Assembly (NCBI RefSeq): GCF_016717175.1
Contig: NZ_JADKFZ010000004.1
Reading direction: 5' to 3' (one strand)
DNA: 64,000 bases
DNA from: Nannocystis sp.
GTDB lineage: Bacteria > Myxococcota_A > Polyangia > Nannocystales > Nannocystaceae
Shown here piece after piece: positions 2,497 to 59,255 of the stretch. Below the pieces are notes generated by a model that ran no database searches, was not told where the DNA came from, and saw nothing but the letters and a program-made list of their open reading frames with translations. The position numbers were made by a program, and so were the translations under genes. Each line of letters begins with the position of its first letter. Position 1 is the stretch's first letter.

Positions 2497-3621
2497 TCAG
2501 TCCGCGAGCTCGAGCAGCAGCTGACGGCAGCGGAGGCGGCGGAGCTCGTCGGCCTCGGGGCGCTCGACGTACGCCGTGAGCAGCGCGCGGGCCTCGGCGT
2601 GGCGGGCCTTGTCGCCGGGGCCGGCGAGGGCGCTGCCGAGGTTGAACTGCAGCTCGGGCGGGAGGCGCTCGGGCGGGTCGCCGCGGTGCCAGTCGCGGGC
2701 GGCGGCGGCGTGGCGGTAGGCCTGCTCGGCGCCGTGGGGGTCGTGCAGGCGGGTGCGGGCGACGCCGAGGCCGAGGCCGGCGAGGTAGCGGTCGACGGCG
2801 GCGGGGGCCTCGAGGGCGGGGGCGTAGAGCTCGGCGGCCTTGCGGTCGTTGCCGGCGGCCAGCTCGGCGGCGGCCCAGCTGAGGCGCGGGGCGGGCTCGT
2901 CGGGGTCGAGGGTGAGGGCGAGGGCGAAGCGGCGGCGGGCCTCGCCGGGCTCGTGGGCGGCGAGCGAGACGCGGGCGCAGCTGGCGACGAACAGGGCGGC
3001 GCCGCGGGGGTCGCCGCCGTCGGCCGCGGGGTTGTCGTCGACGATGCGTTCGCGGCAGATCTGGGCGGCGAGGGCGAGGCGTTCGGGCTCGCGGTCGGCG
3101 AGGGCGAGGTCGTGGCGCAGGGCGACGGCGAGGGCGTAGGGGTCGTCGGGGGCGAGGGCGAGGGCGGCCTGGAATTCGCTGCGCGCGGCGTCGCGGTCGG
3201 CGGGCTCGGCCCGGGCCTCGAAGGCGGCGACGTGGAGGAGGGCGAGGCCGACGCGGGCGGCGGGGCCCTGCAGCAGCTCGCGGGCCTCGGGGACCAGACC
3301 CTCGGCGAGGGCCAGGGCGGCGAGCTCGTGGGCCCAGCGCGGGCGCGGGTCGCGTTGCAGCAGCTCGGCGTAGATCGCCAGGACGGCCCGCGCGCCGCCG
3401 CAGCGGCGCAGGACGGCGGCGCGGGCGAGGGCCTCGTCGGTGGTGGGCGGGATCGAGGTGTCGGCGCAGGGGTCGGGGGCGGGCGCGGGGACGACGGTGT
3501 CGGGGTGCGCGGGGCGGACCGCGGCGCCGGGGGCCTCGCGCTTGCAGGCGAGCAGGAGGCAGAGCGCGACTGTCCCGAGGGACAGGTTGCGAGCGGCTGG
3601 CTGGGCTGTCCGGAGGGACAT
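2497..3621 (-). CDS. TPR-repeat lipoprotein
   Basis: The 743-aa track ORF is an artefact upstream. The credible protein starts at one of three in-frame ATGs (3621, 3657, 3693), each giving MSLRxxQ…. The lipobox is VALCLLLAC. It is followed by Ala/Leu-rich TPR-like helical repeats to the stop at 2497. Confidence 0.55.
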   Translation of the reverse strand: MSLRTAQPAARNLSLGTVALCLLLACKREAPGAAVRPAHPDTVVPAPAPDPCADTSIPPTTDEALARAAVLRRCGGARAVLAIYAELLQRDPRPRWAHELAALALAEGLVPEARELLQGPAARVGLALLHVAAFEARAEPADRDAARSEFQAALALAPDDPYALAVALRHDLALADREPERLALAAQICRERIVDDNPAADGGDPRGAALFVASCARVSLAAHEPGEARRRFALALTLDPDEPAPRLSWAAAELAAGNDRKAAELYAPALEAPAAVDRYLAGLGLGVARTRLHDPHGAEQAYRHAAAARDWHRGDPPERLPPELQFNLGSALAGPGDKARHAEARALLTAYVERPEADELRRLRCRQLLLELAD

Positions 3622-3700
3622 GGTGGAAGAGACAGCTGCGGCTGGCCGGAGGGACATGGCGGAAAGGGCAGCTTGGGCTGGCCGGAGGGACATGGCGGGA
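3586..3700. repeat. 3 x 36-bp tandem repeat, each unit containing GGAGGGACATGG
   Basis: Units ggctggccggagggacatggcgg… are repeated three times immediately upstream of and overlapping the TPR gene start. They encode MSLRP-MSLRP-MSLRT when read on the minus strand. Confidence 0.8.
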
Positions 3701-3713
3701 GGGCCAGGTTGGT

Positions 3714-7182: not shown

Positions 7183-8043
7183 ATGAGCCACCCCGCTGAC
7201 CTCGCCGCCGACACCGCCGTGGAGCCGCGCGGCGGGGGGCACTACGCGTGCACGCTGCCGCGGCACTGGGACTACCTGTTGCCGTCGGGCGGGGTCCTGG
7301 TGACGCTGGCGTTGCGGGCGATCGCGGCCGAGCTGGGGCTGCGGCCGGGGCTGTTGGGCGAGGACACCGGGGTGCGGCCGCTGTCGGCGACGGCGGTGTT
7401 CTGCTCGCCGGTGCCGGCGGGGCCGGTGGTGATCGCGGTGACGGTGCTGCGGCGCGGGGCGCTGGCCAGCCAGGTTCGGGCGCAGCTGTCGGCGTTCGGC
7501 GGCGAGCTCGGGCTCGAGCTGATCGCGACCTTCGGGCTCGAGCGGCCGGTGGTCGACGCGACGATGTGCGCGGCGCCGGTGGTGGCGGAGCCGCTGGAGC
7601 TGCCGGCGATCGACCCGGCCGACCAGACCTTCATCCCGGCCTTCATCCGCAACTTCGATCACCGGCGGGCGATCGGGTCGGCGTGGTGGCGGGCGGACGA
7701 GTGGGTGAAGGGCGACCGCAGCGGCTACTGGTACCGCTACCTGCGGCCGCAGCGGCTGCCCGACGGGCGCCTCGATCCGCTGGCCCTGCCGCCGCTGATC
7801 GACACCATGCCGCCGGCGATGTGCTCGCTGATCGGGCCGCCGGCGCGGGCCTTCACGGCGCCGAGCCTCGACCTGACGGTGCACTTCGTGCAGGACACGA
7901 CGAGCGAGTGGCTGTTGACCCACGCCCGCTGTCGTGCGGTGCGCGGCGGCTACGCGACGGCCGACATCGAGATCTGGGACGAGGCGCGGCGGTTGATCGC
8001 GTACGGGACGCAGGTGATGATCCTGCGCCGACGCGCTAGTTGA
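7183..8043 (+). CDS. thioesterase-family protein (double hot-dog, TesB-like)
   Basis: 286 aa with protein-like composition and high GC3. Loosely matches the PF13622-type thioesterase-like architecture. No sharp motif was verified. Confidence 0.45.
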   Translation: MSHPADLAADTAVEPRGGGHYACTLPRHWDYLLPSGGVLVTLALRAIAAELGLRPGLLGEDTGVRPLSATAVFCSPVPAGPVVIAVTVLRRGALASQVRAQLSAFGGELGLELIATFGLERPVVDATMCAAPVVAEPLELPAIDPADQTFIPAFIRNFDHRRAIGSAWWRADEWVKGDRSGYWYRYLRPQRLPDGRLDPLALPPLIDTMPPAMCSLIGPPARAFTAPSLDLTVHFVQDTTSEWLLTHARCRAVRGGYATADIEIWDEARRLIAYGTQVMILRRRAS

Positions 8044-8207
8044 GCCAGTCGCGGGCTGAGCTCCATGGCGCGTCGCGGGCGAGCTCGGCGACGCGGCGGG
8101 CGAGCTCGCGCCAGGCGCCGTTCACACCCCATGAGTTCGGCGGCCGCGTCGAGGAGCTCGCGGTTGCGGCGGTGGCTGGCGATCGCGGGCTGCTATGCTG
8201 CGACGCG

Positions 8208-9698
<1,491 letters not shown>

Positions 9699-9763
9699 TC
9701 GCGCGAGGGCCAAACGCGGGATGGCCAGCGCGAGGGCCAGACGCGGGATGGCCAGACGCGCGA

Positions 9764-9796
9764 GGGCCCGGTCCGACGCGCGTCGTGACCGGGCCC
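9764..9796. terminator. GC-rich near-perfect palindrome between convergent genes
   Basis: gggcccggtc…gaccgggccc, a 10-bp stem with a palindromic loop, between transglutaminase-like (+) and the lipoprotein (-). It is flanked by 26-bp direct repeats gcgagggccagacgcgggatggccag. Confidence 0.4.
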
Positions 9797-9827
9797 GGGG
9801 TTCCCATGAGGGGGTGGAGGGTGTGGT

Positions 9828-11585
9828 TCAGAGCTTCGGGTCGAACTTCACCTTGGTGACGGTGAGGCCGATGTAGTCGAGGGTGCCGAAGTCCTTGAGG
9901 TTGCTGTCGCCCACGCAGACCTTCCAGGCGCCGGCCGGCGCCTCGCCGAGGAAGTCGTTGAAGTCGACGCCCGGGCCCTTGAGGTGGGTCGGGTTGTACT
10001 CGCAGAGCGAGTCGTCCTTGCACACGATCTTGTCCGCGGCGATGGTGGTGCCCATCTTCGACCCGTTGGTGACGCCGCCGTTCTTGAAGGTGACGGGGAA
10101 GTCCTTGCTGAGGTCGGAGCTGTCGTTGCAGCAGCCGGTGCCGTCGTCCGGGAGGGCGCTGTTGCCGGGGCGCTGGAGGACGGTGAGGACGGTGCCTGCG
10201 GGGCTCTGCAGCTTGATCGTGACGTCGCCGATCCACGGGTGGTCGAGCCCGACGGTGAGCTGGACGTTACCGACGAAGGCGAGGTCGACGTTCTCGGCGA
10301 TGGCGATGTCGGTGCAGAGCATCGTGTCGAGGTTGCCGTTGTACTTGTCGTCGAGGAGGGCGAGGGCGAGGTCGGGGGCCTCGGCCAGCTCGTCCTCGCT
10401 GTTGCCCATGCACTTGTTCTTCTCGGCGGCGCCGACGACGATCTGGTCGCAGAGCGGCCCGAGGGCGTCGAGGATCGCGGTCTGGTCGCCGGCGGCGACG
10501 CCGGCGGTGCCCATCGCGGTGACCAGGTCGCCGACGAGGGCGCCGAAGTCGTCGATGGTGATCGTCGTCATGTCGGCGTCCATGAGCATCTCGTGCGAGC
10601 TGGTCATGTCGCGGCACTCGTTGCCGACGCCGACGCCCTCGTCGATGCCGGCGCCGGGGGAGTCGACCTCCTGGCCGTACTTGGTCGGGCCGTCGATGCC
10701 GCCGACCTGGCGGGTGAGGCAGGTGTTGAGGCGGGCGAAGTCGCTGGCGGCGAAGAAGGTGTTGATCGCGTCGTTGACCGCGACCACGCCGACGAAGGAG
10801 TCCGTGAGGTCCGGGGTGCCGATCAGGCCCTTGATCGCGGGCTTGCGGCCGACGCGCTGGTAGACGGTGGCGTCGCTGGTGAGGTCCTCGACGATGTCGC
10901 CCTTGAGGCTGCCGAGGGTGTCGAGGATCGCGGTCTTGTCGGCGTCCGTGAGCTCCGGGTGCATGCCCTGGTGGGCGTCGAGGGCGGTGACGAAGTCGGC
11001 CGCGAAGTCGTTGAAGTCCTGGTCGGAGATGCCGAGGCCGGCGTGGGCTTCGAGCATGCTCAGGCCGCCGTAGGTGACCCCGGGGCACTCGGCGACCTCG
11101 CCGAGCTGGTCGGTGACGAGGCCGATGAGGGCGCCGCCGTCGACGTCGTTGTTGAGGAAGTAGCCGTTGATCTTGTCGTCGAGGAGGACGCCGCCGACGA
11201 AGGCGGTGACGAGGTCCTTGATGCCGCCGTCACCCGCACCGCCGAGGCGCGTGCACAGGTTGTCCTGGGGGCCCTCGGTGGTGTCGGTGGTGGTATCGGT
11301 GGTCGGATCGCCGGAGGTGCTCGGGTCCGTCGACGGGCCGCTGGTGCTGTTGTCCGTGGTCGCCGTGTCCGTGGTCGGCGTGTCCGTGTCGGTCGTCGGC
11401 GGCGTCGTGTTGGTCGTGGTCGGGTTGCTGGGGTCGTCCGTCGTCGTGCCGGCCTCGGTCTCCGTGCCCTCCGTGGTGGTGAGGGAGGGGTTGGCCGGAC
11501 AGGCCGACAGGACCGGCGCGAGGCCGGCGAACAGAAGGCCGAGGCCGAGCTTCGACGAAAGGGGGTTCAGAGTTTTCTTGTGCAT
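9828..11585 (-). CDS. lipoprotein with two truncated-haemoglobin (group 1 trHb)-like domains and a C-terminal proprotein-convertase P-domain
   Basis: Lipobox LAPVLSAC. Thr/Pro-rich linker. Domain 1 ends …SMLEAHAGLGISDQDFNDFAADFV…LGSLKGDIV, matching the trHb F-helix/proximal-His region. Domain 2 has the same layout but appears to lack the His. C-terminus has HPWIGDVTIKLQSPAGTVLTVL (P-domain-like). Confidence 0.5.
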   Translation of the reverse strand: MHKKTLNPLSSKLGLGLLFAGLAPVLSACPANPSLTTTEGTETEAGTTTDDPSNPTTTNTTPPTTDTDTPTTDTATTDNSTSGPSTDPSTSGDPTTDTTTDTTEGPQDNLCTRLGGAGDGGIKDLVTAFVGGVLLDDKINGYFLNNDVDGGALIGLVTDQLGEVAECPGVTYGGLSMLEAHAGLGISDQDFNDFAADFVTALDAHQGMHPELTDADKTAILDTLGSLKGDIVEDLTSDATVYQRVGRKPAIKGLIGTPDLTDSFVGVVAVNDAINTFFAASDFARLNTCLTRQVGGIDGPTKYGQEVDSPGAGIDEGVGVGNECRDMTSSHEMLMDADMTTITIDDFGALVGDLVTAMGTAGVAAGDQTAILDALGPLCDQIVVGAAEKNKCMGNSEDELAEAPDLALALLDDKYNGNLDTMLCTDIAIAENVDLAFVGNVQLTVGLDHPWIGDVTIKLQSPAGTVLTVLQRPGNSALPDDGTGCCNDSSDLSKDFPVTFKNGGVTNGSKMGTTIAADKIVCKDDSLCEYNPTHLKGPGVDFNDFLGEAPAGAWKVCVGDSNLKDFGTLDYIGLTVTKVKFDPKL

Positions 11586-15585: not shown

Positions 15586-17022
15586 ATGCGCAAGATCGTG
15601 ATCGCGAATGTCGCCCTTTCTGTGGTCCTCGGTGGTGCGGTCGGCTGTTCGTCGGCGGACGTCGGCCTCACCGAGACCGTCACCATCACGGCCTCCGGGG
15701 ACACCGGCCAGCAGGGCACCACCAGTGGTGACCCGGGGACCGGCGCCGCGGCGACGACGGACGGCCCGACGACCGCGCCGCCGACCACGAGCGTGTCCGG
15801 GACCGGCGAGACGACCGACATCCTCACGGGGGGGATCAGCGCGACCGACAGCGCGACCGACACCGCGAGCACGACCGGGAATGACCCGAACCAGACGAGC
15901 AGTGGCGGGGAGACCGGCGGTAGCACGGGGGTGCAGGTCGCCGATGGCGACGGCGACAAGATCCCGGACGACCAGGACAACTGCGTCGAGGTAGCGAACG
16001 AGGATCAGCTGGACACTGACGGCGACGGTGTCGGCGACGCCTGCGACGACGACGACGACGACGACACGATCCCCGACCCGGACGACAACTGCCCGCTGGT
16101 GCCGAACGACAAGCAAGAGGACCTCGACAAGGACAAAATCGGCGACTTCTGCGACGACGACAAGGACGGGGACGGGATCCTCAACGGCGTCGACAACTGC
16201 CCGATCACCCCCAACGCCGACCAGAAGGACCTCGACAAGGATCTCATCGGCGATGTCTGCGACGACGACAAGGACGGCGACGCCATCCCCAACGACGCCG
16301 ACGTGTTCCCCGACGACGGCGGTCAGCCTGGCATCGTCATCCCCAAGAAGATCTACGCCCACTCGTCGAGCGCGCTGTCGACGGTCGACGTGGTCGACTA
16401 CAGCGTGGTCGCCATCGGGCCGTTCCAGTGGCCGCTCGGCAACGATTCGATGACCGACATCGCCATCGACCGCTACGGCGTGCTGTACGGCGTCAGCTTC
16501 GGCCGCGCGTACGTGTGCAACCCGACCACCGCCAAGTGCTTCGACCTCGGCACGCTCAACAACAGCTACAACGGCCTGACCTGGATCCCGGCGGGGATCA
16601 TCGATCCCGACAACGACTCGCTGATCGGCATCGGCAACGACGGCAGCTGGAACCACCTGACCTTCGTGAACAAGGTCGTGACGGCCAAGAAGCTCGGCAG
16701 CTACGGGCCGGGCTACACCTCGGCGGGCGACGCCTTCTCGATCGAGAACGTCGGCACCTACGCGGCGGTCAACAAGAACGGCGCCGCGGGCACGGTGATC
16801 GTGACGGTCGACGCGCTGACCGGGAAGGCGACGGGCGAGCTGGCGGTCACCAACGGCTACTTCGGGATCTACGGGCTCGCCGGCTGGGAGGGGCTGATCC
16901 TCGCGTTCGACTCGTCGGGCACCGTGATCAAGATCGACCCGATGACGAAGGTGGTCACCAACCTCGGCAAGAAGGCCCAGAGCTGGTGGGGCGCCGGGGT
17001 CGGCACGATCCTGCCGCAGTAA
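15586..17022 (+). CDS. lipoprotein with thrombospondin type-3 (calcium-binding) repeats
   Basis: ATG 15586 is preceded by GGAG. Lipobox GGAVGC. At least 4 repeats of DxDxDGxxDxxDNCPxxPNxDQxDxDxD (TSP3). C-terminal beta-rich domain. Confidence 0.7.
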   Translation: MRKIVIANVALSVVLGGAVGCSSADVGLTETVTITASGDTGQQGTTSGDPGTGAAATTDGPTTAPPTTSVSGTGETTDILTGGISATDSATDTASTTGNDPNQTSSGGETGGSTGVQVADGDGDKIPDDQDNCVEVANEDQLDTDGDGVGDACDDDDDDDTIPDPDDNCPLVPNDKQEDLDKDKIGDFCDDDKDGDGILNGVDNCPITPNADQKDLDKDLIGDVCDDDKDGDAIPNDADVFPDDGGQPGIVIPKKIYAHSSSALSTVDVVDYSVVAIGPFQWPLGNDSMTDIAIDRYGVLYGVSFGRAYVCNPTTAKCFDLGTLNNSYNGLTWIPAGIIDPDNDSLIGIGNDGSWNHLTFVNKVVTAKKLGSYGPGYTSAGDAFSIENVGTYAAVNKNGAAGTVIVTVDALTGKATGELAVTNGYFGIYGLAGWEGLILAFDSSGTVIKIDPMTKVVTNLGKKAQSWWGAGVGTILPQ

Positions 17023-17444: not shown

Positions 17445-18263
17445 CTAGCCGGCGGCGGTGGGCGGTGGCGCTGGTGGTTGGCCGGGGATCTTGCTCAGGC
17501 GCGGTGAGCCGGCGGGGATCTCGGGTGCGTCGACGAGGTGCTCGAGGATCTCGCGGATGCCCTCGTCGCTGCAGGCGCCGGTCTGCCAGGTGAACTGGCG
17601 AACCACCGACCAGCCGGGGAGGAAGGCCCAGTGGAGGTCGTCCTGCTCGCTCCAGTAGGCGCCGGCGAGGCCGGGGATCGGCACGGAGCGGAAGTTTGGG
17701 TCGCTGGCGAGCCGGCGGGTGAAGAGGTCGTGCGCCTCGGCGGCCTCACGCGCGTCGGCGCCGCGGACGAGCGAGAGGCGAAACCAGGTCGGGGGGGCGC
17801 CCGAGGCCTCGGCGTCGGGCAGGAAGTAGTAGCCGCAGGTCGCGTGGAACGACTCGCCGAGGTAGAGCTTGAGGCCGCAGGCCCGCTTCACGACCTCGAC
17901 GTCGAGGCCGAGCTGGCGCGTGCAACACTCGGGCTCGGACAGCTCCGGCGCGAACAGGCGACAGTTGCCGTTGCTCTCGTCGGGCCGACCGGTGCCGGGG
18001 CTCGGGGGTTCCTTGGGCGGGTTCGGCACGCCGTTCTCGGCGACGTAATAGTCAGCGGTGTCGGCGACGATGCGCTTGTCGTTGGGGTTCGGCGGGGCGT
18101 CGTCGCGACGTGACTCCGGGGCGGGCTCGCTGGCCTGCGGACAGGCGGCGAGGCCCCCCACAAGGCCAGCCAGGAGGCCAATTCGGAGGCTGTCTGGGAG
18201 GCCAATGCGGAGGCTGTCTGGGAGGCCAATTCGGAGGCCACGAGCGAGGGTCCGGCGAGGCAT
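17445..18263 (-). CDS. hypothetical lipoprotein
   Basis: Lipobox GGLAAC. The N-region contains the 3x repeat LRIGLPDS, encoded by 24-bp DNA repeats. Cys-rich mature domain. Confidence 0.5.
   Translation of the reverse strand: MPRRTLARGLRIGLPDSLRIGLPDSLRIGLLAGLVGGLAACPQASEPAPESRRDDAPPNPNDKRIVADTADYYVAENGVPNPPKEPPSPGTGRPDESNGNCRLFAPELSEPECCTRQLGLDVEVVKRACGLKLYLGESFHATCGYYFLPDAEASGAPPTWFRLSLVRGADAREAAEAHDLFTRRLASDPNFRSVPIPGLAGAYWSEQDDLHWAFLPGWSVVRQFTWQTGACSDEGIREILEHLVDAPEIPAGSPRLSKIPGQPPAPPPTAAG
18173..18245. repeat. 3 x 24-bp tandem repeat inside the signal-peptide coding region
   Basis: ggaggccaat(t/g)cggaggctgtctg occurs three times. Confidence 0.8.
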
Positions 18264-26302: not shown

Positions 26303-27613
26303 GTGAGGCGGTGGATCGCAGGGCTCTCGCTGGTGCTGGCGGCGCTGCTTCTGTGGTTGTGGTGGAGTGATGTGCCGGTGGGCAAGGCCGGTTCCGGCAA
26401 GCGCACCGGCCGGCGGTCGGCCGTGGCCGGCGGGTCGGCGAGCGGGTCGATGGGGATCGGGAGCCGTGGTGAGGCGGATCGCAGCGGCGTTGGCCAGGTG
26501 CGGGGGCGGATCGTCGACAGCGACGGGATGCCGGTGACCGACGGGCGGGTGATCCTTCATTGTCTGCCGAGGGGGGGGTCGCACAGCTTCCCGATCGACG
26601 CCGGGGTGGTCGAGGTCGGCGAGGAGGGGCAGTTCGTCGGGCCCGGTTGCCGGGGCCTGGTCTGCGCTGAATTCCGCCATACGCACCTGTTGCCGCGCGA
26701 GCCGTGGGTGTTCGAGCCGAATCAGAGCGAGCAGATGGTGACGGCGCGGCCGCTGGAGCGGATCGTCGGGACTGTGGTCGACGTGGAGGGACAGCCGGTG
26801 GCCGGGGCCCGCCTGATGGTCCGGCGCGGGAGCGACGACGACCCGACCGCGCTGCCGCCGTTTACGACCAGCACCACGACGAGCGACGCGGAGGGGGGCT
26901 TTGGCTTCGCCCGCGTCGAGCGGCCGCCCTGTGATCCCTGTGGTGAGGCCAGCGGGCGCTGTGAAGTCGGCGATGCGGCGGAGGTGCCGGCCTACAACGC
27001 GCTGGTGCTCGTGGCTCGCGCCCCCGGGTTTCGTAGCGTCGAGCGAGCCGTCGAGCTCGGGCAGGAGGACTGGCAGGTGACCCTGTTGCCGCCGTTGCCG
27101 GCGCTGCGGGGTACGGTACGGGATGCGGAGGGTCGGGCGTACCCGCGGGCGCGCGTGCTGGCGCGCTCGCATGTGCGCGGATACGAGGTGCACCAGGCGG
27201 TGGTGAAGGACGGGAGCTTCGCGCTGGCCGAGCTGGGGGAGGGGGGCTACGACCTGCGGGTGCTCCAGGACGGGGTCACTCTGGCGACGGCGAACGAGGT
27301 GGACGCGGGGACCGAGGTGACGCTGGTCGGCGATCGTCCGGCAGAGGGACCGACCCTGGTAATTGAGGTTGTGAGGCGCGACGGCGGGGATGGGGTGGCC
27401 GGGGCGCTGGTCGATGGTGGGCCGTTTGCGGGCGCCCGCACGGACGCAGACGGACGGGTGCAGGCGGAGGATGTGGCGCCGGGTCGCTATGCGCTGGTCA
27501 TCCGGGCTCCTGGCTCGGGGACGCAGCGGCGCGAGATCGAGGTAGCGGCGGGAGCCGGCGAGGCGGGCGGAGCGATCGTCCACCGAGTCGACATCGTGTA
27601 CGACGCGCCCTAG
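26303..27613 (+). CDS. membrane-anchored protein with four carboxypeptidase-regulatory-like (CarboxypepD_reg / Cna-B-like) domains
   Basis: GTG 26303 follows GGGGGAG. N-terminal TM helix LSLVLAALLLWLWW. Repeats of G.V.D..G.PV…RV (GRIVDSDGMPVTDGRVIL, GTVVDVEGQPVAGARLMV, GTVRDAEGRAYPRARVLA, …). Confidence 0.5.
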   Translation: MRRWIAGLSLVLAALLLWLWWSDVPVGKAGSGKRTGRRSAVAGGSASGSMGIGSRGEADRSGVGQVRGRIVDSDGMPVTDGRVILHCLPRGGSHSFPIDAGVVEVGEEGQFVGPGCRGLVCAEFRHTHLLPREPWVFEPNQSEQMVTARPLERIVGTVVDVEGQPVAGARLMVRRGSDDDPTALPPFTTSTTTSDAEGGFGFARVERPPCDPCGEASGRCEVGDAAEVPAYNALVLVARAPGFRSVERAVELGQEDWQVTLLPPLPALRGTVRDAEGRAYPRARVLARSHVRGYEVHQAVVKDGSFALAELGEGGYDLRVLQDGVTLATANEVDAGTEVTLVGDRPAEGPTLVIEVVRRDGGDGVAGALVDGGPFAGARTDADGRVQAEDVAPGRYALVIRAPGSGTQRREIEVAAGAGEAGGAIVHRVDIVYDAP

Positions 27614-27749
27614 GCGTGCGCGACGAGGACGATCGTCCGGGTCGACATCGTGTACGACGCGCCCTAGGCGTGCGCGACGAGGACGATCGTCCGGGTCGAC
27701 ATCGTGTACAACGCGCCCTAGGCGTGCGCGACGAGGCAGCGACCCATCA
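27573..27749. repeat. 3.3 x 54-bp tandem duplication of the gene junction
   Basis: The unit gtcgacatcgtgtacgacgcgccctaggcgtgcgcgacgaggacgatcgtccgg carries the upstream gene's last codons (VDIVYDAP-TAG) and a GTG that is in frame with the kinase. Copies start at 27588, 27642 and 27696, with a partial copy before them. Confidence 0.9.
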
Positions 27750-30700
27750 TGACGAGTTCCCGCGGGGCTTCGGGAAGTTCGTACTGCTCCGCGAGATGGC
27801 CCGCGGGGGGATGGGCGCGCTGTACCTCGCGGCGGCTGGCGAGCATGGCGGGCTCGAGAAGCTGTGCGTGGTCAAGACCTTGCTCGCCGACGCCGATGCT
27901 GATGAGGACGGCGCGCTCGGTCGCCGCTTCTTCGATGAGGCTCGTGTGGTCGTGCGCCTGAATCACGCCAACCTCGTACAGGTGTTCGATGTCGGGGCCG
28001 TGGAGGGTCAGCTCTACCTGGCGATGGAGCTGGTGGACGGGAAGGACCTGCGGGCGGTGTGGAACCGCTGCGCACAGCTGCAGCGGCGGATCCCGGTCGA
28101 CATCGCGGTGTTCGTGGTCCGCGAGCTGCTCCGCGGGCTGGCGTATGTGCACGACGCGATGGGGCTCGGCTTGGTCCATCGTGACATCTCACCGCCGAAC
28201 ATCCTCGTCGGCTACCGCGGCGAGGTGAAGCTGACGGACTTCGGTCTGGCGAAGAGCGTGCTGCGCTCGGAGATCACGAGCCCGGGGCGGGTGCTCGGCC
28301 GCTTCAACTACCTCTCGCCGGAGCAGGCCCGGGGTCAGGCGGTCGACCGGCGCACCGACATTTATGCGGCGGGGATCGTGCTCTGGGAATTACTCACGGG
28401 GCGGCAGTTGTTCTCCGCGAGCGTGGCGAGCCACGGCGCGACGCTCGCGGCCGCCCGTGACCCGTTCGTGCGGGCGCCCTCAGAGCTGGTCCCTGAGATA
28501 CCGGATGGCCTCGACTCGATCGTGTTGCGGGCCCTCGGGACCGAGCGAGAGCAGCGCTATCAGACGGCGGACCGCTTCCGTGCGAGCCTTTCGGAGATCC
28601 TCGCGCGAAATTATCCGAGCTGTGATACGGACCGGATTGGCGGGTTTATGCGCGACATCTTCGCGCGAGACCACAAATTTGAGACTCACGACTACGCGAG
28701 CTACGTTCGCGAAGATTTCTCCAGGGTCCGGGAGCAAGGTCGGGGGCAGGATGCCGTCAGCCTTTCGGACTCCATGGACATCCCACGCCGGGGCCGACGG
28801 GCAGCAAGCGAGAGCAGGATGGCGGATATCGAGGAAATGGGCCTTCTCAGCGGCCACACAGCGAAGCCCACGGCGTCGACCCGGGAGGAGGCAGAACAGC
28901 GCTGGGGTACCGTCGTCGCCGGTCGTTACCGGGTCGAGGACCTGCAGGTCTTCGACGGCATGGGCGCGCTGTATCGGGCCCGCGACACCGAGCGTGGGGT
29001 TCCGTGTGCGCTGCGCGTGCTGCCGGAGATCTATGCCCGCGAACCGGAGGTGATGGCCCGCTTCATGGCCGACGCCCAGGCGGCGCAGGAGCTCAAGCAC
29101 CCGAACATCGCGCAGGTGTTCGACATCGGCAAGCTCGACGACGGGGCCGTGTACGCGGTGACCGAGCTGCTCGATGGCCAGAGCCTGGCGACGATCATCC
29201 AGGAGGAAGGTCGCATCTCGCCAGGGCGGGCCGTCCACGTGGCCAGCCAGGTGTGCCGCGCGCTGGGCACGGCGCACGAGTCGGGGATCATCCACCGCGA
29301 CTTCAAGCCCAGCAACATCGTGCTGGTGGCGCAGGAGGGCGACCTCGACTTCGTGAAGGTCGTCGACTTCGGCATCTGCTCGCACGTCGACAGCGAGCCG
29401 TCGACGACCACCTCACAGCAGGAGTTGATCATCGGCTCGCCCGATTACATGGCCCCCGAGCAGGCCGCTGGCGCCGAGGCCAACCCGGCGTGTGACATCT
29501 ACGCGCTCGGGGCGGTGCTGTTCGAGACGCTGAGCGGGCGTCTGCCGTACAAGGGGCGCAACGCGATCGACGTGCTGATCCAGAAGGGTGCACGCGACGC
29601 GCCCCGGGTCACGGATGTGGCGCCGGACGTGCCCGAGGGGCTCGCCGACGTGATCGCGGCCTGCCTGTCGCGGCGACCCGAGGAGCGGCCGTCGTCGATG
29701 CGGGTGCTCGAGGTTGAGCTGCTGCGGGCGCTCGACAGCAAGGCGCCGCGACCGGTGAAGAGCGCCGTCGCGGCGGCGCTGGCTGGCGCCGGGGTGCCCC
29801 GTTTGGACACGTCGGAGCGATCGGCGAACCTGCCGTTACCGCCTCCGCCGGAGAGCGCGTCGAGCTCGTCGATGCGGGCGCCGGTCAGCAACGAGGCGTC
29901 GGCCTCGGGGCCACGCACGGGCCCGGCGAGCGGCCCCAGCGGGCTGACGCCGGTGACGGCGATGCGAGAGGAGCGTCGGGAGCCATCGTCAGTGCAGCGG
30001 CCGCCTGAGCCGCTGGTCGAGCGACCGACCCAGCAGGACGTCGTCGAGCCGGTGCAGCAGAGCTCGAACGGTTGGTTGTGGCTGGTGGCCGGCGGCACGC
30101 TGATCATCGCGGCGGTGCTGCTGTACCCGCAGCTGTTCGGCGGCGGTCCGGTGCCGCCAAAGCCCGACGCCAAGGGTGGCGAGGTCGTGGTGAAGACCAG
30201 CGCCGATGTGGCCGAGCCCGATGTGCCCGACACGGTCGAGCCGGAGCCGCCGGTCCCACCACCGGCACCGACGCACGACCCGATGGTGATCGTGACCCGC
30301 GCCGAGCTCGCGCTGGGGGAGGGCCGGCTGACTGCGCCGGCGGGTAACAACCTCTCGGAGTACCTGCAGCAGCTGGCCACACTCGACGCGGGCAACGAGG
30401 CGATCGCTCGCCTTCGCGGCAAGGCGGTCGAGGGCCTGCTGGCGAAGGGCAGCAAGGAGCTGGCCGACAAGCACGCGCACGAGGCCGCGGCCTTCCTGCG
30501 CGAGCTGTTCGTGCTGGCCCCGGACAACAAGGACGCGATCGCACCGTTCACGGAGGCCGTGCTCACCGAGAGCAGGATCTTGCGCCACATGAAGGCGTGG
30601 GACGAGATCCTGCCGCTGATCGAGGAGGTCACGAAGGTTAACCCCAAGAGCTTCGACGCGCAGATGCTCCGCGGGCAGACGCTCGCGGGCCTCGGTCGCT

Positions 30701-30807
30701 GGACCGACGCCGTCGAGGCCTACAAGGCCGCGACCGCGCTGCGCAAGAAGGACAAGCCCGCCAAGGCGGCGCTCGCCGAGGCGAAGAAGAAGGCGGCGGG
30801 AAAGTAG
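27724..30807 (+). CDS. Ser/Thr protein kinase with two tandem kinase domains, a TM helix and a C-terminal TPR-like domain
   Basis: Domain 1 has FGKFVLLREMARGGMGALY, HRDISPPNIL, DFGLAK and SPEQ. Domain 2 has GMGALYRARD, HRDFKPSNIV, DFGI and APEQ. Then NGWLWLVAGGTLIIAAVLLY (TM). Start is likely GTG 27724 in the third repeat copy, but GTG 27616 or 27670 are also possible. Confidence 0.8.
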   Translation: MRDEAATHHDEFPRGFGKFVLLREMARGGMGALYLAAAGEHGGLEKLCVVKTLLADADADEDGALGRRFFDEARVVVRLNHANLVQVFDVGAVEGQLYLAMELVDGKDLRAVWNRCAQLQRRIPVDIAVFVVRELLRGLAYVHDAMGLGLVHRDISPPNILVGYRGEVKLTDFGLAKSVLRSEITSPGRVLGRFNYLSPEQARGQAVDRRTDIYAAGIVLWELLTGRQLFSASVASHGATLAAARDPFVRAPSELVPEIPDGLDSIVLRALGTEREQRYQTADRFRASLSEILARNYPSCDTDRIGGFMRDIFARDHKFETHDYASYVREDFSRVREQGRGQDAVSLSDSMDIPRRGRRAASESRMADIEEMGLLSGHTAKPTASTREEAEQRWGTVVAGRYRVEDLQVFDGMGALYRARDTERGVPCALRVLPEIYAREPEVMARFMADAQAAQELKHPNIAQVFDIGKLDDGAVYAVTELLDGQSLATIIQEEGRISPGRAVHVASQVCRALGTAHESGIIHRDFKPSNIVLVAQEGDLDFVKVVDFGICSHVDSEPSTTTSQQELIIGSPDYMAPEQAAGAEANPACDIYALGAVLFETLSGRLPYKGRNAIDVLIQKGARDAPRVTDVAPDVPEGLADVIAACLSRRPEERPSSMRVLEVELLRALDSKAPRPVKSAVAAALAGAGVPRLDTSERSANLPLPPPPESASSSSMRAPVSNEASASGPRTGPASGPSGLTPVTAMREERREPSSVQRPPEPLVERPTQQDVVEPVQQSSNGWLWLVAGGTLIIAAVLLYPQLFGGGPVPPKPDAKGGEVVVKTSADVAEPDVPDTVEPEPPVPPPAPTHDPMVIVTRAELALGEGRLTAPAGNNLSEYLQQLATLDAGNEAIARLRGKAVEGLLAKGSKELADKHAHEAAAFLRELFVLAPDNKDAIAPFTEAVLTESRILRHMKAWDEILPLIEEVTKVNPKSFDAQMLRGQTLAGLGRWTDAVEAYKAATALRKKDKPAKAALAEAKKKAAGK

Positions 30808-30945
30808 CCTGCAGCGCCGCGCGACGAGATGCTCGTCGCGGCGGCGTGGCTGCGCCGGAGCGAGCTCGGGTTGAGCTGGCTGAGCTGCGCTGGCTCAGCG
30901 GGCTCTTGCTGGCTGAGCTGGCTCGGGCTGTCCCGAGGGACAGGT

Positions 30946-31161
30946 CTACTCGTCGCGCTCCATCTTCTTGCGGAGGCTGAGCGGGCGCATGTCGGTCCAG
31001 ACCTCCTTGATGTAGTCGAGGCACTCGGCCTTCGGGCCCTGCTTGCCGGCCTCCTTCCAGCCGAGCGGCAGCTCGCGCTCGGAGGGCCAGATCGAGTACT
31101 GCTCCTCGTGGTTCACGACGACCTTGTAGATCGTGTCGTCTTCGCGGTCTTCGCTGGACAT
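30946..31161 (-). CDS. MbtH-like protein
   Basis: [53 protein letters not shown] matches the MbtH signature (N.E.Q.S.WP…GW…CL.Y…WTD.RP.SLR). It lies 17 bp after the antiporter operon's last gene. Confidence 0.8.
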
Positions 31162-54823: not shown

Positions 54824-54938
54824 TCGGCCGCGACTGTACCGCAAGTCGGGCGATCCGCGGGGGCCGGTGCGGCGGCGCAGCAGGGCAAGTCGGGCGATCC
54901 GCGGAGGCCGACGCGGCGCAGCATGGCAAGTCGGGCGA

Positions 54939-57347
54939 TCAGCGGAGGCCGGCGCGGCGGCGCAGCAGGGCCTCGCCGCCGAGGCCGATCAGCGCGAGCA
55001 GGAGGGCCCAGGGGCCGTCCCACAGCGGCACGCTGCGGCGGCTGTCGATGCGCAGGCCGGGGCCCTCGTCGCCGAGCTCGGCGAGTGGCAAGGAGCTCGG
55101 CAGGGCGTCGCCGTCGCGGGCGCGGAGGAAGCGGCCGCCGGTGGCCTCGGCGAGGGCCTGGAGGCGCTGTTCGCCGGGGTCGGCGTCGACGCGGGCGAGC
55201 TCGTGGCCGGGCTCGTCGACCAGGAAGACGCGGCGGGCGCGGGCCGGCGGCGGGCCGTCGACCTGTCCCGAAGGACCTGTCCTCCAGGCCATGGCCTCGT
55301 AGGCGCCGACGGGGAGGCGGCCGGGCAAGGTGTCGCTGGCACGGCCGAGGGCGTCGGTGGTCCATGTCCCTTCGGACAGGAGGAAGGTGGGCGGGGTGGA
55401 GGTGGTGGTGCTCGCGGGAGGAGGCTCGACGGCGCCGAGCGGGCGGACCTCCCAGGCGAGCGGGACGGCGGGCTCGGGGGCGTAGCTGGGGGTGAGGGCG
55501 GTGGCTCGCAGGGTGACTGGTTGGCCGCGGAGGTAGCTCGGGCGGTCGGTCTCGAGGCTGAGGCGCTCGGCGGCCGCGTCGCGCAGCAGCCAGCGGACGG
55601 CGCCGAGCCACAGGAGGTCGTAGGGGCGGGCGCCGTCGACGAGCGGGAGGTCGGCGGCGAAGCCGAGGCGCCAGGTGGCGCCGGTGGCGAGGACCAGGCT
55701 GCGGCCCTTGCCGGGCTCGGCGATCGCGAGCAGGGGGGCGCCGCCCTGGGCGGTGAGCAGCACGGCGCTGGCGATGCTGGCGGCGTGGGGCGCGAGCTGG
55801 ACGGGGTTGTAGCTGTCGAAGGCGGGGAGGGTCGACCAGTCGGGCGGGAGGGCGGCGAGCCAGGCGGTGATCGGGTGGCGTCGGCCGGCGTCGCTGAGGG
55901 CGGGGCGGTAGCTGTCGGTGAGGGTGCCGGTGGGGCGACGCGTGTCGACGGGGAGGGTCGTGGCGAGCACGCCGGGGTAGTCGCCGGTGGCGAGGCCCAT
56001 GTCGCCGCCGATGACGACGAGGGCGCCGCCCTCCTGCACGTAGCTGGCGATGTCGCCGAGGTAGACGCCGACCTGATGGTTGATCGCGTCGAAGTTGTGG
56101 AGGATGACGAGGTCGAAGGAGCCGAGCTGCTCCTTGAAGAGCTCGTCGGTGGGGAAGGCGATCAGGCTGAGCTCGGCGGAGGGGTCGTCGCGGTCGGCGT
56201 CCTCGACGCTGCGCAGGATGTAGTAGCTGAGCAGCTCGACGTTGGGGTCGCGGCCGAGCAGGGTCCGGAGGGCGCGCACGTCCCAGTCGGGGCGGCCGGC
56301 GACGTGGAGGACGCGGACCTTGTCGCGCAGGACCTTGACGACGAAGGCGCGGCGGTTGTTGGCGAGGGTGGCCTCGCCGGGCAGCGGGCGCACGGCGATC
56401 TCGTGGACGAACTGGCCGACGCGGTCGGGGGCGACCTCGAAGCGCACGGGGACCGGGACGCCGTCGGCGGCGAGGGTGACGCGGGTGCTAGCGACGAGGG
56501 CGCCGTCGCGGCGCAGGTCGACGTCGACGGGCGTGTCGGCGAGGCCGTGGGCGATGAGCTCTGCGCTGAACTCGGTGACGTTCTCGACGAAGGCGAACTC
56601 GCCGGCGTGGAGCTCGGCGACGGCGACGTCGCGGATCGCGGGGGCGCCGGCGCTGACGGTGGTGATCGGGACGCCGAGGGCGCGGGCGGCCAGGAGCAGC
56701 GGGTCCTGGCCGGGCTGTCCGGAAGTACCTGTCCCTTCGAACAGGCCGTCGGAGAGCACGAGGACGGCGGCGAGCGGGCGGGGGTCGTCGGTGGCGAGGC
56801 CGGGCTCGCCGGCGTCCGGGGCCTGGGCGAGCTCGGCGAGGGCGCGGGCGAGGTCGGAGGCGGGGCCGTCGACGGGGACCTTGAGCTCGTCGGCGTCGGT
56901 CTCGGCGATCGGGCGGCTGCGATCGGCGAAGCTGCGCAGGCCGGGGGACAGGCCCTGCTCGCGCCAGGCGGCGCGGGCCGGGGCGCCGGCGGACCAGAAG
57001 CTGCGCAGGCGATCGATGCGCGGGGTGGTCTTGGCGCCGGGGCGCTCGGCGTCGGCGAGGGCCATGCTGGCGCTGGCGTCGACGAGCACGGCGACGCGCG
57101 GACCGACCGGACGCACGGTCTCCCGGGCGAGGGTGAGCTCGAGGCCGACGGTGAGCAGGGCCAGCAGGCCGAGCATGCGCAGGGTGAACAGGCCGAGGCG
57201 GGTGCGGCGGGGCAGCGCGGGCCGGCCGGGGCCGGCGCCGCGGAGCGCGAGCGCGGCCTCGACGACGGCAATGGCGAGGCACACGACCAGGAGGGTCAGG
57301 GCCAGCGGGTCCGGCACGTGGCCCGCGACGAGGCGCCAGCGCTCCAT
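54939..57347 (-). CDS. BatA/BatB-like membrane protein with vWA and class-I glutamine-amidotransferase-like domains
   Basis: Two N-terminal TM helices. vWA MIDAS motif VLVDASASM. GATase1-like ILHNFDAI…GGALVVIGGD. C-terminal TM helix. 802 aa. Confidence 0.6.
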   Translation of the reverse strand: MERWRLVAGHVPDPLALTLLVVCLAIAVVEAALALRGAGPGRPALPRRTRLGLFTLRMLGLLALLTVGLELTLARETVRPVGPRVAVLVDASASMALADAERPGAKTTPRIDRLRSFWSAGAPARAAWREQGLSPGLRSFADRSRPIAETDADELKVPVDGPASDLARALAELAQAPDAGEPGLATDDPRPLAAVLVLSDGLFEGTGTSGQPGQDPLLLAARALGVPITTVSAGAPAIRDVAVAELHAGEFAFVENVTEFSAELIAHGLADTPVDVDLRRDGALVASTRVTLAADGVPVPVRFEVAPDRVGQFVHEIAVRPLPGEATLANNRRAFVVKVLRDKVRVLHVAGRPDWDVRALRTLLGRDPNVELLSYYILRSVEDADRDDPSAELSLIAFPTDELFKEQLGSFDLVILHNFDAINHQVGVYLGDIASYVQEGGALVVIGGDMGLATGDYPGVLATTLPVDTRRPTGTLTDSYRPALSDAGRRHPITAWLAALPPDWSTLPAFDSYNPVQLAPHAASIASAVLLTAQGGAPLLAIAEPGKGRSLVLATGATWRLGFAADLPLVDGARPYDLLWLGAVRWLLRDAAAERLSLETDRPSYLRGQPVTLRATALTPSYAPEPAVPLAWEVRPLGAVEPPPASTTTSTPPTFLLSEGTWTTDALGRASDTLPGRLPVGAYEAMAWRTGPSGQVDGPPPARARRVFLVDEPGHELARVDADPGEQRLQALAEATGGRFLRARDGDALPSSLPLAELGDEGPGLRIDSRRSVPLWDGPWALLLALIGLGGEALLRRRAGLR

Positions 57348-57367
57348 GCTAGCGGCGCAGCTCCGGG

Positions 57368-57520
57368 GTGGGGCGGGGTTGGACCTGGCTCTCGAGGCAG
57401 GTTCGGCTGGCCTCTGGGACAGGGCGCGTGGGACAGGTGGGGCGGGGCAGGACCTGGCTCTCGAGGCAGGTTCGGCTGGCCTCTGGGACAGGGCGTGTGG
57501 GACAGGTGGGGCGGGGCATG
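57368..57520. repeat. 2.2 x 62-bp tandem repeat immediately upstream of the BatA-like gene
   Basis: ggggcgggg(t/c)(t/a)ggacctggctctcgaggcaggttcggctggcctctgggacagggcg(c/t)gtgggacaggt occurs twice, followed by ggggcggggcatgg. Confidence 0.85.
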
Positions 57521-58944: not shown

Positions 58945-59255
58945 TGCGGTACGGGCTTGAGGACAGGTGCTTCGGGACAGGTTACGGGGCTGTCCTGGAG
59001 GACAGGTGCTTCGGGACAGATTGCGAGGCTGGCCTGGAGGACAGGTGCTTCGGGACAGAGGCCCGCGCCCTCGGCCACGATTGTGACACCAGGGCAACTT
59101 CGGCCGCGCGCCGCCCCTGACGGTGGTGTCGCTGGTGGCAGGATCGCTGCTGGTGCTGGTGGCAGATGCGCCGTGGTACTGTCACTTTCGCCGCTGCTGT
59201 CGCCCGGGTCGGCCGGGCAGGCGAGGAGCACGAGGACGAGGCGACGCGCGAGCAT
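58914..59255 (-). CDS. candidate small lipoprotein with 3 x 12-aa repeats (CPEAPVLQxSxx)
   Basis: MLARRLVLVLLAC is a clean lipoprotein signal. The repeats are encoded by the 36-bp tandem DNA repeats at 58957-59059. No obvious SD. Confidence 0.35.
   Translation of the reverse strand: MLARRLVLVLLACPADPGDSSGESDSTTAHLPPAPAAILPPATPPSGAARGRSCPGVTIVAEGAGLCPEAPVLQASLAICPEAPVLQDSPVTCPEAPVLKPVPHHPARSSSAR
58957..59059. repeat. 3 x 36-bp tandem repeat (GGAGGACAGGTGCTTCGGGACAG core)
   Basis: Read directly from the sequence. Confidence 0.85.

Follow-up and report, generated by a model that had tools for sequence, protein, structure and literature searches.

The junction between a CarboxypepD_reg-like gene and a Ser/Thr protein kinase gene of Nannocystis carries a 54-bp stop/start unit in three tandem copies in the window (the whole stretch of 64,000 nucleotides that was analysed), whereas all 25 related loci covering the junction carry one. 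The array is best explained as a young, lineage-specific amplification of the junction that has probably moved the main kinase start to the first of three in-frame GTG codons (GTG-1) and is most likely neutral or slightly deleterious (probability of about 0.7 for this reading as a whole). A deleterious effect would lie in altered kinase dosage, and the array is unlikely to be an evolved regulator. No evidence for adaptive function or dispersal was found. The copy number rests on one MAG assembly.

Tandem Repeats Finder, run on the 64-kb window, reports a tandem array at 27583-27736 with a period of 54, 2.9 copies, 98% matches, no indels and a score of 294; among the repeats of the window with a period >20 bp it has the highest identity. 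A pattern scan of the window placed a 42-nt core (GTCGACATCGTGTACGACGCGCCCTAGGCGTGCGCGACGAGG) at 27587, 27641 and 27695 with 0, 0 and 1 mismatches, respectively, where 100 shuffles gave an expectation of 0 matches by chance. The two methods agree with each other and with the tandem triplication described in the earlier note. Matches to the unit are confined to 27587-27736, and none was found elsewhere in the window. In register, the copies occupy 27583-27636, 27637-27690 and 27691-27744 on the plus strand, the last of them departing from the unit after 27736 (46/54 nt). Homology of the unit reaches 5′ to ~27572 (GCGATCGTCC), which makes the range of 27573-27749 first given for the feature a reasonable one.

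Every copy contains a TAG (27611-27613, 27665-27667 and 27719-27721) followed by 2 nt and a GTG in the kinase frame. The three GTGs lie at 27616, 27670 and 27724, as previously reported, and share a frame that is open from 27616 to 30807 and encodes 1063 aa; their local contexts are identical from −41 to +14. Copy 1 (27583-27636) contains the genuine 3′ terminus of the upstream gene together with its functional TAG and GTG-1 (27616-27618, plus strand), and carries the variants CCGAGTC...TACGAC. GTG-1 lies 2 nt past the functional stop, with the same spacing as at the ancestral junction. Copy 2 (27637-27690) is a mosaic: its 5′ part is that of copy 3 (CCGGGTC, with a 3-nt deletion) and its 3′ part that of copy 1 (TACGAC). 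Its start codon, GTG-2 (27670-27672, plus strand), is in frame and would give a product of 1045 aa. Copy 3 (27691-27736) keeps the ancestral TACAAC and continues into unique kinase sequence (GCAGCGACCC...). The upstream-gene part of the unit, earlier counted as the last eight codons and the TAG, consists of nine exact codons (RVDIVYDAP) and the TAG, or of 11 codons if a one-codon deletion is allowed, and the earlier count was thus roughly right.

At the novel joint between copies, a perfect 12-bp palindrome (GGACGATCGTCC) is formed at 27627-27638 and again at 27681-27692. A longer, imperfect palindrome of 24 nt surrounds it (27621-27644 and 27675-27698). The energy of its DNA hairpin is not better than that of shuffled sequences, and the 12-mer occurs natively in one single-copy relative (L023). 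A role as a binding site or in a hairpin-driven mechanism was rejected on these two grounds, and the palindrome is probably incidental.

The gene upstream of the array (26303-27613, plus strand; stop TAG at 27611-27613) encodes a secreted or membrane-anchored protein with CarboxypepD_reg-like domains (Pfam PF13620, E 3.8e-27). The NCBI model (MBK9754213.1) starts at 26333 and predicts 426 aa, but the orthologues (MRRWIAGLSL) and an SD-like GGGGGAG favour a start at 26303 (436 aa), where the SD duplex is −9.3 kcal/mol versus −3.2 kcal/mol at 26333; the NCBI start is probably 30 nt too far downstream. Two Nannocystis MAGs at NCBI encode identical upstream proteins, both with the derived ...YDAP end. 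The kinase gene (27724-30807, plus strand) is an exact match to NCBI MBK9754214.1, which has 1027 aa and starts at GTG-3. It encodes a Hanks-type kinase (PF00069, E 5.9e-77, in two stretches) whose sequence shows the G-loop, HRD and DFG motifs. Pfam and AlphaFold together give a layout of two Pkinase domains, a disordered linker, a predicted helical segment and C-terminal TPR-like helices, with AlphaFold confident over both kinase domains. The kinase of the second Nannocystis MAG, which encodes MBK7826592.1 and MBK7826593.1, differs by one residue. A phosphoglucomutase-family gene lies directly upstream of the CarboxypepD_reg gene, and the order of the three genes is conserved. No promoter-like or terminator-like sites were found among them.

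An observation apart from the array concerns the β-3 lysine site of the second kinase domain (window ~29000-29030, residues ~465-470 of the 1063-aa form). Here and in all close Nannocystis orthologues the site reads CALRVL, with Arg, where the majority consensus of a 48-sequence alignment that includes more distant homologues is ALKVL, with Lys. Judged from these sequences, the second kinase domain of the Nannocystis clade may be a pseudokinase.

The state of the junction in relatives was established from 25 loci covering it, found by protein look-up and an exact-pattern scan of genome and metagenome collections. All 25 have a single copy, in which the upstream stop is followed after 1-2 nt by the kinase GTG, and nucleotide identity to the window is ~84-96% where measured. 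The closest lineage is represented by five samples (L025-L029; ~93-96% identity). These are followed by L016, L021 and L022, which share the same junction sequence (~91-92% for L016), by L005-L015 (~85-87% for the two loci measured) and by L017-L020 (~83-88%); the kinases of L023 and L024 are 73% and 70% identical. The spacing between stop and GTG is +2 nt throughout the relatives, as at GTG-1 in the window, except in L024, where it is +1, and the sequence ...GTCGACATCGTGTACAACGCGCC(C/G)TAGG(C/T)GTGC... is almost invariant across their junctions. An alignment of the window with the relatives shows a clean 108-bp gap in all of them, and the exact-pattern scans returned only orthologous single-copy junctions. 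Copy numbers seen are three in this MAG versus one in lineages at or below ~96% identity, with no copy-number polymorphism among the 25 related loci. A Logan contig, SRR11673999, matches the window at 99.5% over 2.2 kb of downstream sequence. The uniform single-copy state of the relatives indicates that the array is lineage-specific and recent, and on this alignment the two extra units are a derived insertion of one lineage. The 19 kinase orthologues (70%–100% identity) all start with M/V-[H/R]-D-E-A, corresponding to GTG-3. GTG-3 is thus both the NCBI start and the common start of the orthologues, which bears out the earlier statement that only the third copy leads straight into the kinase.

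Two minor points emerged from these loci. In L021 (ENA ERZ23795167 NODE_121983), a LysR-type region directly adjoins the 5′ end of the kinase gene, with the joint ~40 bp upstream of the junction, and the end of the kinase fragment, EIGRASCRERV, resembles a translated Illumina adapter; this contig is probably chimeric or adapter-contaminated. In L005-L014, genes for an HSDR_N-domain protein and an ABC-ATPase lie between the kinase and an MbtH-like gene (~7270-10040). They are absent from the window (30807-30946), L016 and L024, a small difference in synteny.

The variants within the array record its history. The relatives have TACAAC (Asn), together with GGGTCGAC or GCGTCGAC in most cases. The ancestral AAC is found only in copy 3, and the derived GAC is common to copies 1 and 2. 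Conversely, GGG and a 3-nt deletion (ACC) near the novel joint are common to copies 2 and 3, whereas copy 1 has ACC and GAG. The middle copy, with a 5′ part like copy 3 and a 3′ part like copy 1, is the expected product of unequal crossing-over or slippage in a two-copy array. Its mosaic nature implies at least two amplification steps with point mutations between them. In the sequence of events that we propose, a segment of ~56-58 bp across the junction would have been duplicated, with the joint losing 3 nt (ACC) and undergoing one small change. Copy 1 would then have gained the point changes AAC to GAC and GGG to GAG, and unequal crossover or slippage between the two copies would have generated the third, mosaic copy. 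The joint itself (GACGAGG-A-CGATCGTCC-GGGTC) is not reproduced by any simple join of ancestral sequence or duplication model. It requires the 3-nt loss and one more small change, for which several equally short paths exist, and its exact mutational path is ambiguous. An argument for selection on the reading frame, drawn from the junction indels, was dropped, as a 57-nt in-frame duplication with one substitution and a 3-nt deletion fits equally. The most likely description of the array is a private minisatellite of recent origin, at the stop/start junction of two co-oriented genes that abut closely.

The features of the junction suggest how the kinase is translated. The SD duplex is −2.4 kcal/mol at all three GTGs versus −7.7 and −9.3 kcal/mol at the two preceding genes. 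A 6-bp RNA hairpin, CGCGCC-CUA-GGCGUG, is predicted at 27604-27618 on the plus strand, in which the whole GUG and the G of the UAG are paired, the UAG being located in the loop and 3′ arm; the same hairpin is predicted at 27658-27672 and 27712-27726. The local segment folds at −11.6 kcal/mol in RNAfold, with a P(unpaired) of ~0-0.08 for the start codons, and the same stem is predicted in the single-copy relative L016. The hairpin at the start is a thermodynamic prediction without covariation support. Over the whole region, neither the three-copy sequence nor a single-copy relative folds better than shuffled sequences (z −0.77 and +0.46), for which reason a structured RNA element was rejected; Rfam gave only sub-threshold noise, outside the array. 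The combination of no SD match, a paired start and a stop 2 nt away is a layout typical of translational coupling, in which the terminating ribosome opens the start, and the ancestral junction was probably a translational-coupling site. It resembles described termination-reinitiation pairs in its +1/+2 nt spacing, the lack of an SD match and the predicted occlusion of the start (PMC12548453, PMC10666635). It differs from them in that here the coupling site has been copied, so that the coupled position is taken by a new in-frame start and the conserved one is left 110 nt away from the stop.

Reinitiation drops steeply with the distance between stop and start and is almost abolished past ~20 nt (PMC10666635). 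In a phage coat-lysis construct with two starts after the stop, initiation was observed only at the closest (PMC12548453). In the array, ribosomes translating the upstream gene would terminate only at TAG 27611-27613, which is 2 nt from GTG-1 and 110 nt from GTG-3; GTG-1 itself sits 108 nt upstream of the conserved start. As the sole termination site adjoins GTG-1, the published distance dependence suggests that most initiation probably occurs there. Ribosomes would then read through both extra units and produce a kinase of 1063 aa, extended by 36 residues; initiation at GTG-2 and GTG-3 would be minor. If translation is coupled, we infer GTG-1 to be the main kinase start. The suggestion of the earlier note that duplication of the junction modulates coupling is mechanistically reasonable in this respect, given that the junction is conserved, lacks an SD match and has a start predicted to be paired, but an evolved device finds no support.

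The added peptide consists of RDEDDRPGRHRV[R/Q]RALGV, read twice, as anticipated from the first two copies. Part of it repeats the first six or seven codons of the kinase, and the rest comes from the end of the upstream gene, translated in a different frame. Read as kinase codons, it has a GC3 of 0.49 versus 0.89, and its CAI of 0.32 (against a mean of 0.76) is below that of all 2556 reference 35-codon windows from five reference genes. Its codons include CTA, which does not occur once among 2731 reference codons. In the AlphaFold model of the long form, residues 1-46 have a pLDDT <50, with the exception of residue 8, and no secondary structure; the confident kinase fold begins at ~residue 50. 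The 36-residue extension is thus predicted to be disordered. Since homologues are annotated with N-terminal tails of anywhere between 1 and 60 residues, the kinase can probably tolerate the added length. No match to the extension peptide was returned by a search of 5.8 billion proteins. With relatives at one copy, poor codons and predicted disorder, N-terminal length variation as an evolved device, another possibility raised from the sequence, is not supported.

The principal alternative is that the kinase starts only at GTG-3 and that the extra units form an untranslated 110-nt spacer, which would uncouple the kinase from the upstream gene and lower or deregulate its synthesis. This is possible but rather unlikely. 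The NCBI annotation and the N-termini of the orthologues favour GTG-3, the identity of the contexts would allow de novo initiation to use any of the GTGs, and the extension is poor in preferred codons. Yet it is GTG-1 that has the full ancestral context, including adjacency to the terminating ribosome, whereas GTG-3 lacks an SD match, is paired in the predicted hairpin and lies at a distance from the stop at which reinitiation is nearly abolished. Moreover, initiation at GTG-1 or GTG-2 is in frame and meets no stop, so that an extended protein must result from it. A different objection is that the array arose in assembly or polishing of the MAG and that the true genome has one copy. The array is indeed present in only one accessible assembly, the assemblies of the relatives are all single-copy, and the same window has a 69-nt poly-G run that is typical of sequencing artefact. 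We nevertheless regard an artefact as improbable. The three copies differ, and the mosaic follows the polarity of the variants, with AAC in copy 3 only and the junction indels shared by copies 2 and 3; such a mosaic of the outer copies is not what a collapse or expansion error yields. In addition, the 915-kb contig suggests long reads, which would span the 162-bp array, and the derived state of copy 1 (YDAP) is also present in the second MAG.

Preference for a young amplification with its main start at GTG-1 also has to be weighed against proposals that give the array a function. It could be an evolved element, either a VNTR that tunes dosage or yields nested isoforms, or a protein-binding site made of palindromes 54 bp apart. 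The unit length is a multiple of three and the unit is open in the kinase frame, the joint creates two perfect palindromes on the same helical face, and MIRU arrays at operon junctions can have promoter activity (PMC4213456). Against this, the array occurs in one lineage only and no variants in copy number were found, one unit length in three would be in frame by chance, and codon usage is without adaptation. The hairpin of the palindrome is not unusually stable and the 12-mer has arisen by chance in L023, no promoter-like sites are present, and the extension is absent from the protein search. An evolved element is accordingly very unlikely. The least weight is given to a related proposal, that the array represents the birth of coding sequence by duplication of a junction, with copy number as a heritable dial on kinase dosage or isoform. 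Five-codon mini-ORFs in the frame of the upstream gene, which begin at GTG 27650 and 27704 and end at TAG-2 and TAG-3, might relay ribosomes to GTG-2 and GTG-3 in such a scheme, in the way proposed for the ORFs of MIRUs.

As in VNTR-type minisatellites, the array has a constant head-to-tail period, and its unit is single-copy at the same locus in relatives. Duplication of a stop/start junction had been considered unusual, but MIRU-VNTR arrays in mycobacterial operons provide a precedent. In the M. tuberculosis complex, tandem repeats fill the rnc-fpg1 junction over 279-358 bp, whereas in most other mycobacteria it measures 1-6 bp, with up to 20 bp in M. avium (PMC2734929), and the senX3-regX3 spacer is built of 77-bp and 53-bp units whose number varies by strain (PMC4213456). 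The ends of MIRU ORFs overlap the stop or start of their neighbours, and coupling to the flanking genes is kept (PMC12548453, PMC3184786). Like these loci, the present array is a lineage-specific expansion of ~50-80 bp tandem units between co-transcribed genes, and the TAG, 2 nt and GTG of each unit could keep coupling, a likeness in layout only. In contrast, the MIRUs form a dispersed family that is probably mobile, occupies 40-50 loci per genome and has target-site repeats, whereas the unit here is native junction sequence. The MIRU ORFs are separate relay ORFs; here the starts are in frame with the downstream gene and the units become part of the protein. Membership of the MIRU family was rejected, as the unit consists of native gene ends, is present once in all relatives, contains no foreign insert and is not dispersed in the window or in the genome and metagenome collections scanned. 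Neither is the array a phase-variable simple-sequence contingency locus, which has units of 1-9 nt and shifts frame; the unit of 54 nt equals 18 codons and stays in frame. The aaTRs of Borgs (PMC9879509) are likewise recent head-to-tail repeats with a unit divisible by three and a predicted disordered segment. They are, however, pervasive, perfect, A-rich and located within ORFs, while here there is a single GC-rich array that extends across the border of two genes, with the neighbouring gene translated in another frame over part of its length.

The event is therefore of an ordinary kind, a tandem duplication of VNTR type, in an unusual and instructive position, and no new kind of system is involved. 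Its value is that of a clean, datable case in which tandem duplication at a coupled gene boundary can shift the effective start while annotation by homology stays with the former one; the cell may in fact not make the 1027-aa kinase as annotated. The three identical contexts, one of them beside a stop, also provide a natural test of nearest-start choice by reinitiating ribosomes, and the array could serve as a strain marker for the source Nannocystis population.

Other repetitive sequences were observed in the window. A run of ~69 G (712-780), 97% pure, lies between ORFs; it looks like a sequencing or polishing artefact and not biology, and is a warning on local assembly quality. Further tandem repeats are located at 57367-57518 (69 bp, 2.2 copies, 96%), 58959-59059 (39 bp, 2.6 copies, 93%), 54841-54971 (44 bp, 3.0 copies, 86%–89%), 18173-18238 (24 bp, 2.8 copies, 95%) and 3602-3712 (36 bp, 3.1 copies, 82%). 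Several of their consensus units have GGGACAG and GGCTGGCC-like motifs in common, and these repeats may constitute a dispersed minisatellite family of the source genome. A repeat at 16031-16302 with a period of 108 bp (2.5 copies, 77%) encodes Asp-rich, DxDxDG-like units that, judged by eye from the consensus, resemble thrombospondin type-3 calcium-binding repeats.
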